DNA of 32,000 nucleotides from Promethearchaeota archaeon (GCA_048939465.1 JBHLPL010000001.1:1-32000); one strand, 5' to 3'. Positions 16,930-17,981 are shown, numbered from the stretch's first letter. The notes: generated from the letters alone by a model not told the origin. A program made the numbers and translations.

Positions 16930-16957
16930 TTTATAAGTAGGTATTCTACTAAGTAGA
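16930..16957 (+). promoter_or_regulatory. TATA box plus palindromic candidate operator of the padR-hsp20 operon
   Basis: TTTATAA at 16930-16936, followed by TCTACT-A-AGTAGA at 16945-16957. Confidence 0.45.
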
Positions 16958-16995
16958 GTGATAATACGTAGAATGAAATAATATATCGTTGATAT

Positions 16996-17601
16996 GTGAT
17001 GAAAATGTTTTGGCACGGACGTGGACTTGGAAGAGGCATCTGGCATAAGAAAAGAATATCTCCAGTGGAATTTCTGATGCTGGTAATGTTGAAAGAAAAA
17101 CCCAGATACGGCTACGAGATTATTCAAGAACTGGATGATAAGTTCAAAGGTCAATGGACTCCAAAGACAGGAACGGTGTATCCTGCCCTTCAAAGGCTAG
17201 AAAAACGTGATCTGATTAGCGGAGCGCTTGAAGAAAGCGAATCAGGACCGTCTAGGAAGATATATAGTTTAACCTCTGAAGGTGAGGGGATATTGAGCAC
17301 AATTGCAGATAATTTTGACCGAGAGATAAAATTCCTGAACACGTATGTGGGAATAGTCGATCCCTTTCTCTCTTCATGGAGTGCAGACTACGCCATACGC
17401 CGTCTCAAAGGAGCTATTAAAGCAAATACCAATAGGGTGATCAGACTGTCGAAGTCTTTCCTTAAGATACCTTTTGAAGATTTGGAAAAGCACCTTACAG
17501 AGTACCGGAACTTCCTGCAGTCTCAGATTGAAAAAGTAGAAGATGAGCTACAGAAAATCGAGAAAAAAAGACGGAAATACGTAAAAATTGATGTCGAATA
17601 G
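16996..17601 (+). CDS. PadR-family transcriptional regulator with a long helical C-terminal region
   Basis: LVMLKEKPRYGYEIIQEL...WTPKTGTVYPALQRLEKRDLI...RKIYSLTSEGE. Confidence 0.94.
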   Translation: MMKMFWHGRGLGRGIWHKKRISPVEFLMLVMLKEKPRYGYEIIQELDDKFKGQWTPKTGTVYPALQRLEKRDLISGALEESESGPSRKIYSLTSEGEGILSTIADNFDREIKFLNTYVGIVDPFLSSWSADYAIRRLKGAIKANTNRVIRLSKSFLKIPFEDLEKHLTEYRNFLQSQIEKVEDELQKIEKKRRKYVKIDVE

Positions 17602-17609
17602 GAGGTGTT

Positions 17610-17981
17610 ATGATGAATCACGGAATAGGATCGTTCCTACACAAGATGATGAAATCCAGACATCACTGGAAGCGTCTCTTACCTTTTAGGCCGATAGGGT
17701 TGCTCAATGAAGCAGATCAGATAACAGTCCAAATAGATATTCCCGGGTTTAACAAGGAAGATATAGACATTAGAGCTGGGGAAGATGAGCTAGTGATTGA
17801 GGCCGAAGCCAAAATTGAGATAGAAAAACCAATCATGGAGAAGAGTAAGAGAAGGTTCTATGATGTAATTCAGCTTCCAGCTTTCGTCAAAACTGAGGAG
17901 GCGAAAGCCAGGTACGAAAAAGGTGTTTTAACCATAACTCTTCCAAAAAGAGAACCTCAGAAAAAGATAGATGTGGAATAA
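17610..17981 (+). CDS. hsp20: Small heat shock protein (Hsp20 / alpha-crystallin domain)
   Basis: VQIDIPGFNKEDIDI...AKARYEKGVLTITLPK with a C-terminal IXI/V motif (KIDVE). GGAGGTG RBS. Confidence 0.93.
   Translation: MMNHGIGSFLHKMMKSRHHWKRLLPFRPIGLLNEADQITVQIDIPGFNKEDIDIRAGEDELVIEAEAKIEIEKPIMEKSKRRFYDVIQLPAFVKTEEAKARYEKGVLTITLPKREPQKKIDVE

Follow-up and report, generated by a model that had tools for sequence, protein, structure and literature searches.

A PadR-family regulator co-encoded with Hsp20 in Asgard archaea ends in a conserved small heat-shock protein-type motif: a candidate chaperone-titrated feedback pair

The window, a stretch of 32,000 nucleotides of Promethearchaeota archaeon DNA, carries on its plus strand a compact two-gene unit made up of padR and hsp20 (16930-17981). 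The unit starts with an archaeal TATA box, TTTATAA, read from the sequence at 16930-16936, which is followed by three phased, GTAG-headed repeats of about 16 nt (16937-16982, plus strand; starts at 16937, 16953 and 16968) that form a candidate PadR operator. The first gene (17005-17601, plus strand) encodes a PadR-family regulator of 198 amino acids when read from the ATG at 17005 (MFW...; Pfam PF03551, E 3.7e-23). A GTG at 16996 is an alternative upstream start that would yield 201 amino acids, and the ATG was preferred because the orthologues begin with MFW. The second gene (17610-17981, plus strand) encodes a Hsp20/alpha-crystallin small heat-shock protein (sHSP) of 123 amino acids (Pfam PF00011, E 1.5e-17). 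Its Shine-Dalgarno sequence, GGAGGTG (17601-17607, plus strand), is located in the 8-nt gap between the two genes, suggesting translational coupling, and this arrangement is also present at the Frey/Jord and Baldr loci. The operon is surrounded by genes for a thymidylate kinase, a PAC2-like protein, a convergent GGGP synthase (PcrB) and ThiW, a set of neighbours that marks the gene context as archaeal. The DNA comes from an Asgard archaeon; the closest named relative is a metagenome-assembled genome (MAG) labelled Candidatus Hodarchaeota, whose PadR is 82% identical.

The winged helix-turn-helix domain of PadR corresponds to Pfam PF03551 over residues 28-97, and all PDB matches obtained with phmmer/hmmsearch, down to 2.4e-14, are PadR proteins. 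In the AF2 model, calculated from a 37-sequence alignment with a mean pLDDT of 83, the winged helix-turn-helix spans residues 20-89 and is followed by three helices (91-125, 127-152 and 157-193). After helix 157-193, the chain ends in a five-residue coil of low pLDDT that is not packed on the body of the protein. This agrees with an earlier note on this DNA that had placed the tail at the end of a long helical arm. The top Foldseek matches are of the PadR/LmrR type, with TM-scores of 0.75-0.81 normalised on the target; among the ~35 best of 500 matches, the N-terminal half retrieves PadR/LmrR types and nothing was found for the helical arm. At its other end, PadR begins with an arm of 19 residues (MFWxGRGxGRGxW...ISP, 17005-17061, plus strand), defined from alignments, in which W3, G5, R6, G7 and R10 are invariant among the orthologues. 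The arm is disordered in AF2, with low pLDDT, and might serve as a DNA minor-groove arm or as an aromatic/Arg-rich segment resembling the N-terminal regions of sHSPs. The AF2 model of Hsp20 shows a canonical alpha-crystallin domain (ACD), a 7-strand beta-sandwich over residues 28-113 with pLDDT values of 83-92, preceded by 27 disordered residues.

Both proteins of the operon end in the same five residues. PadR closes with AAA ATT GAT GTC GAA TAG (17584-17601) and Hsp20 with AAG ATA GAT GTG GAA TAA (17964-17981), both of which read K-I-D-V-E-stop. The sHSP-type IXI/V anchoring motif accordingly lies at 17584-17598 in padR, where it is supported by conservation and by the AF2 coil, and at 17964-17978 in hsp20, where it was read from the sequence of a protein ending KKIDVE (both plus strand). 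The observation of the earlier note that the two ends match through different codons is borne out, with 4 of the 5 codons differing synonymously and GAT in common. Conservation applies to the motif class, [KR]-[IV]-x-[IV]-E, and not to KIDVE as such. That the two pentapeptides agree in every residue is partly coincidental, since two sister genomes pair a PadR ending KIDVE with a Hsp20 ending KIDIE, and since in other lineages the middle residue of the tail is not equal between PadR and its Hsp20. The occurrence of the motif class at both C-termini is not luck.

The background frequency of such ends was assessed in the ~1,879 ORFs of 90 or more amino acids that served as a proxy proteome for this 1.96-Mb genome. 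A C-terminal [IV]x[IV][ED] is found in eight of them: four Hsp20-family proteins, the PadR of the operon, and three unrelated enzymes (a desulfoferrodoxin-like protein, Fae-Hps and a BsuPI-like protein). With half of the cases belonging to the Hsp20 family, about 0.2% of the non-sHSP proteins carry an end of this kind, and shuffled tails give ~5 such ends per proteome. Seven PadR-family ORFs are encoded in the genome, and only the Hsp20-linked one has the tail. ORFs with the alpha-crystallin fold likewise number seven, including the Hsp20 of the operon. The six others are located in genome G000 at C121:10018-10467, C150:190-744, C64:4520-4837, C69:44691-45266, C1:6296-6835 and C88:3715-4065. 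Three of these six end in IXI-E like the Hsp20 of the operon, and none has a PadR neighbour. The regulator is thus paired with just one sHSP paralogue in the genome.

In a profile search of 5.8 billion proteins, all 43 top homologues (E <= 1.5e-41) end in [IV]x[IV][EDQK], 40 of them with a final E, while only one of the 77 next-ranked PadR matches has the tail, by chance. When 1.84 billion representatives were searched exhaustively with HMMER, nine full-length top matches (E <= 7.6e-36) were obtained, and all nine carry the tail. In the 37-sequence alignment, both hydrophobic positions are I or V in 36 sequences, the final residue is E in 33, and a K or R precedes the motif in 33. The middle position is open to different residues (E, K, N, D or S), and the linker before the motif varies in length and sequence. 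Judged from its alignment columns, this pattern is the signature of a short linear motif, typical of IXI. The tail thereby combines the features of an IXI/V motif, namely a flexible C-terminal segment, conserved hydrophobic residues and a free middle residue. There is no residue-level covariation between PadR tails and cognate Hsp20 tails, which speaks against the docking proposed below.

The codons of the orthologous tails vary synonymously, the stop codons are TAG, TGA or TAA, and the spacer between padR and the next gene measures 8 nt in some lineages and ~100 nt in others. Due to this variation, the constraint is taken to act on the protein and not on the ribosome-binding site. Ribosome-binding-site constraint as the cause of the conservation was dismissed, as the tail is kept together with a ~100-nt spacer and a different stop codon.

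To place the operon in its wider context, 400 Asgard genomes were surveyed. At a cut-off of E < 1e-68, the full-length orthogroup occurs in 17 of them, from five families whose MAG labels are Hod-, Atabey-, Frey-/Jord-, Borr-/Sif- and Baldr-archaeia. The tail is present in 16 of the 17 orthologues. Hsp20 is encoded directly downstream at 12 of the 17 loci, and these Hsp20s end in [IV]x[IV][EDN]. At the other five loci (Borr- and Sifarchaeum), the gene directly downstream encodes an ArsA-type ATPase with a C-terminal HSP20-like domain (PF02374 + PF17886; PF17886 E 1e-15 to 1e-19). ArsA/Get3-like ATPase genes 3' of a PadR orthologue are located at L038:3722-4885, L039:3721-4884, L040:729-1904 and L043:1387-2550. 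The second-tier PadR loci of the same survey have neither the tail (0 of 13) nor a Hsp20 neighbour (0 of 13). Unlinked PadR paralogues thus lack the tail, and tail-bearing PadRs always adjoin a gene for Hsp20 or for a protein with a HSP20 domain.

The Borrarchaeum PadRs keep the tail (EISVE, EINVE) though their partner is not a classical sHSP. In the ArsA-HSP20 ATPase itself, the domain is not followed by an sHSP-type tail at the C-terminus, nor does a small IXI-tailed ORF come after the gene. The PadR tail may be the ligand of the HSP20-like domain of the ATPase in Borr- and Sifarchaeum.

The single orthologue without the tail is that of Sifarchaeum L043, despite its ArsA-HSP20 neighbour, and this counts against the docking reading. 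The protein ends ...SGQLPHP, and its stop codon lies inside the perfect palindrome CCCTTAAGGG (region L043:1190-1230). No alternative frame offers a frameshift that would restore an IXI end. The 3' end of this gene, which is known from one short contig, could have undergone a rearrangement or insertion.

Two further peculiarities were observed at Atabey-type loci. In Atabeyarchaeum deiterrae, the open frame of PadR extends N-terminally by ~110 residues (L042:2680-3006; also L009 and P0008). The extra segment has a HNH-like look (CxxC...HH...CxxCH), the usual promoter repeats are missing there, and it reflects either a wrongly assigned start or a HNH gene that was fused or inserted. The ~100-nt padR-hsp20 spacers of this type (L037:3628-3724, L041:3622-3721 and L042:3625-3724) each contain a different short GC-rich hairpin, such as TTGCGCgGCGCAA and GAGCACaGTGCTC, ~40 nt before the Shine-Dalgarno sequence. 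At the RNA level, such a hairpin may tune how strongly padR and hsp20 are expressed relative to each other.

A second, more distant PadR subfamily was found in the same genomic setting. PadRs of this Loki-type, which begin with MFFGKRFSGH where the orthologues have the MFWxGRGxGRGxW arm, are encoded directly upstream of one Hsp20 paralogue in all five Lokiarchaeia-type genomes. The family is homologous to the operon PadR family over 165 columns, well past the PadR domain (hhalign 99.6%, E 7e-24), and its homologues come from sources labelled Loki-, Thor-, Heimdall-, Hermod- and Odinarchaeota. The Loki-type tail reads ...[KR]x-I-[PE]-I-x-DDD(E/D)(F/Y)ENF, so that the motif lies within a longer, acidic tail. 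All 120 best Loki-type homologues have [IV]x[IV] within their last 16 residues (IPI in 55, IEI in 43), compared to 10.9% of the other 16-residue windows of the same proteins. Still more divergent are PadRs labelled Helarchaeota, which end FHAIEID and FVNIPIE and are encoded directly upstream of Hsp20s ending RTVAID and RTVDIE. A metagenome scan with the Helarchaeota-type PadRs gave only six unrelated PadR loci, with no tails and no Hsp20 neighbours.

On this evidence, the PadR-Hsp20 module is Asgard-wide and probably ancestral. In the sequences compared, IXI is the sole C-terminal element kept through the divergence of the PadR subfamilies. Because the three subfamilies probably share one ancestral operon, the evidence is one of deep purifying selection and not of independent convergence. 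A conservation check proposed in the earlier note has thus come out in favour of the motif, with the tail kept in essentially all orthologues and in two divergent PadR subfamilies. A chance resemblance without function could draw on the shortness of the motif and on the number of such ends that shuffling produces. However, the motif is kept in >160 homologues from three subfamilies at <40% overall identity and through synonymous codon turnover, and this conservation effectively refutes chance, to which we assign next to no weight.

The position of the motif within the tail bears on another explanation, namely that the tail is a recognition tag for some other machine, for example a C-terminal degron for a protease or unfoldase, which would make PadR a short-lived repressor with faster turnover under stress. 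The strictly C-terminal position in the operon-type orthologues and the conserved carboxylate-proximal Glu would suit such a tag, as would the drop in abundance of the archaeal heat-shock regulator Phr on heat shock (PMC9133787). Against this, the motif is common to stable, abundant sHSPs of the same genome, and in the Loki-type proteins it is followed by further acidic residues and so is no terminal tag. We also know of no archaeal degron of the IXI-E form, which counts further against this explanation, and we consider it very unlikely.

The promoters of the orthologous operons share a second conserved feature. In the Hod, Frey/Jord and Baldr promoters, two to three copies of GTAGAG(A/T)TAACAAT stand right after TTTATA(A/T), the TATA element that lies immediately 5' of the repeats in the orthologous promoters as it does in the window. 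The Borr, Sif and Atabey promoters have single or weaker copies, at other positions or in opposite orientation. Fourteen 110-nt regions together contain 25 [GA]TAGAG hexamers, whereas base composition would predict an estimated ~1.6. The copies in the window are degenerate but retain their GTAG heads and a phase of 15-16 nt, and the strict triple GTAG[AG] pattern has one occurrence in the 1.96-Mb genome, in the padR promoter. The repeats are direct, in contrast to the inverted repeats that are usual for PadR operators, and they are placed 3' of the TATA box and 5' of the start codon, over the site where transcription is expected to begin. Based on their conservation and position after the TATA box, the repeats suggest a candidate operator for local PadR autorepression.

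A scan of the 1.96-Mb genome with a PWM derived from the repeats found no convincing second operator site, and its top matches were intragenic. The repeats are absent upstream of the other Hsp20 genes of the genome, and no operator copies were found in the ~100-nt padR-hsp20/arsA spacers of the Atabey and Borr lineages. Since the copies are degenerate and no second operator site was found in the genome, a wider heat-shock regulon is not supported. A global heat-shock regulon was dropped as a candidate on account of the PWM scan and the repeat-free upstream regions of the other hsp20 genes. Separately, another motif, tttgccgATAGAGTTAAAAG, recurs in near-identical form at G000:C138:32035-32056 (just past the end of the window), C76:367-388 and C69:17384-17405. 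It lies upstream of a tRNA-like sequence, a gene for an eL24-like ribosomal protein and a 466-aa ORF, and is probably a strong-promoter consensus of the genome.

The tandem arrangement of the repeats is also relevant for the function of the tail. Two to three tandem repeats with a 16-nt period suggest cooperative binding of multiple dimers, and interactions through short [IV]x[IV] strands are common. The tail could accordingly be unrelated to Hsp20 and act as a beta-strand in PadR self-assembly, for example as a bridge between dimers that occupy the three tandem repeats cooperatively, or in intramolecular autoinhibition, with its likeness to sHSPs a product of convergence. However, AF2 leaves the tail unpacked on the protein, the likeness to cognate Hsp20 tails includes the flanking K/R and the terminal acidic residue, and the Loki-type motif is a canonical IPI. 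Furthermore, the tail is seen only in PadRs linked to genes of the ACD fold, including the ArsA-HSP20 fusion that lacks a tail itself. We regard self-assembly or autoinhibition as an unlikely function of the tail.

The reading that we favour, with a probability of about 0.5, is that PadR represses its own operon and docks with its tail in the Hsp20 beta4/beta8 groove, which would yield a chaperone-titrated feedback; binding at the repeats, binding of the tail to the groove and the direction of the regulatory effect are what we infer. More specifically, repression would come about through binding of PadR to the phased repeats, which follow the TATA box and span the site where transcription is expected to begin. 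Its tail would mimic the anchoring motif of sHSPs and insert into the groove of the ACD of the co-encoded Hsp20; in Borrarchaeum, the groove would instead be provided by the co-encoded ArsA ATPase, through its HSP20-like domain. As long as it is free, Hsp20 would serve as a co-repressor or keep PadR competent for repression. When unfolded proteins draw off Hsp20 and grooves or oligomers rearrange, PadR would lose its partner and the operon would be derepressed. The net outcome would be a homeostatic feedback, in which the level of free Hsp20 sets the repression by PadR. The chaperone-sensing interpretation that the earlier note gave to the shared tail is thus partly supported: the motif, its deep conservation, its restriction to Hsp20-linked regulators, the synteny, the promoter repeats and the predicted free tail stand behind it, and the docking and the sensing circuit are proposed on this basis.

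Published work on sHSPs bears on the proposed contact in both directions. The beta4/beta8 groove is a conserved socket for IXI motifs, to which the non-sHSP protein BAG3 binds via IPV motifs, and its availability changes with the oligomer state (PMC6212398). For one archaeal sHSP, oligomer assembly depends on the IXI motif (PMC3638399). Isolated IXI peptides bind ACDs weakly, in the range of tens of micromolar for human Hsp27 (PMC6212398). The grooves in intact oligomers may be occupied as well, and both points count against docking.

Docking could also take place without any sensing. In this case, the tail would attach PadR to Hsp20 merely for its solubility or storage in stress, as a privileged client or pseudo-subunit, and induction would arise from intrinsic thermolability of PadR or from another signal. 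The same conservation and synteny fit this explanation, and a PadR dimer would have two tails, as an sHSP dimer does, which could allow co-assembly. The fall of Phr levels on heat shock is a precedent for stability control of archaeal heat-shock repressors (PMC9133787). On the other hand, a plain client needs no dedicated anchoring motif kept across a phylum, and a co-operonic 1:1 coupling to the target gene is typical of feedback pairs. Storage without sensing therefore seems improbable to us. Returning to the titrated autorepressor, we tentatively propose, with somewhat less confidence than in the feedback itself, that Asgard archaea sense proteotoxic stress by means of an sHSP, with PadR mimicking the assembly tag of its chaperone and being switched when that chaperone is consumed.

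To our knowledge, nothing is known about heat-shock regulators in Asgard archaea. According to a 2022 review, Phr and HSR1 are the only archaeal heat-shock regulators known, and their mode of heat sensing is not known (PMC9133787). Both Phr of Pyrococcus furiosus and HSR1 of Archaeoglobus fulgidus are, like PadR, winged-helix proteins with a helical C-terminal part, and both are autoregulated and control hsp20. HSR1 is moreover co-operonic with hsp20. The operator of Phr overlaps the transcription start 3' of the TATA box, and Phr bound there blocks the recruitment of RNA polymerase (PMC9133787); the position of this operator matches that of the candidate PadR operator, past the TATA box and over the transcription start. 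The lineage of Phr and HSR1 is Euryarchaeota, whereas the PadR-Hsp20 pair is found in Asgard archaea. A chaperone-docking tail is not known from the published descriptions of Phr or HSR1. Phr (PDB 2P4W) is absent from the best 60 of 89 PDB profile matches of PadR (E<=10) and from the ~35 best of 500 Foldseek matches, and the matches listed are of the PadR, MarR or Pex types. Homology of PadR to Phr was not detected among these PDB profile and Foldseek matches.

In the bacterial HspR-DnaK, HrcA-GroEL and sigma32-DnaK/GroEL systems, the regulator depends on free chaperone and controls the chaperone gene, and unfolded proteins titrate the chaperone. By analogy, the logic proposed for PadR-Hsp20 would be the same. 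In contrast to these systems, the chaperone of PadR would be an ATP-independent sHSP, and the regulator family and the domain of life differ. The proposed contact differs as well, being a linear mimic of the assembly tag of the chaperone and not a client-like interaction.

Partial parallels exist for the sHSP side of the proposed circuit. BAG3 is likewise a non-sHSP protein whose IXI/V motifs compete for the ACD groove, a regulatory hot spot (PMC6212398), but it is a eukaryotic co-chaperone scaffold that does not bind DNA and has no transcriptional output. IbpA of gamma-proteobacteria such as E. coli is an sHSP that adjusts its own expression to how much of it is free; unlike PadR-Hsp20, it binds its own mRNA directly, with no transcription factor and no IXI mimic (PMC10474464). 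Get3/ArsA-like ATPases with a C-terminal ACD (PMC6593721, PMC10248533) resemble the product of the downstream gene in Borr- and Sifarchaeum. No transcription-factor partner has been described for these ATPases, whereas the partner in the window is a plain Hsp20. A full-text literature search found no paper on a PadR-sHSP link or on a transcription factor with an IXI tail.

If the proposed circuit holds true, PadR would provide the first known case of a transcription factor coupled directly to an sHSP. The archaeal lineage closest to eukaryotes would gain its first heat-shock regulator, and archaea a third type besides Phr and HSR1. Chaperone titration, which so far comprises Hsp70 and Hsp60 systems, would extend to ATP-independent sHSPs, and the beta4/beta8 groove of the ACD would be a signalling socket in prokaryotes, as it is for BAG3 in humans. 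The same tail may in addition address the ArsA/Get3-ACD ATPases. A repressor that carries the assembly tag of an sHSP offers a concrete mechanism that can be tested with peptides. The Loki-type PadR-Hsp20 pair should presumably occur in cultured Asgard strains, and if these strains carry it, heat induction and tail-dependent control would be testable now.
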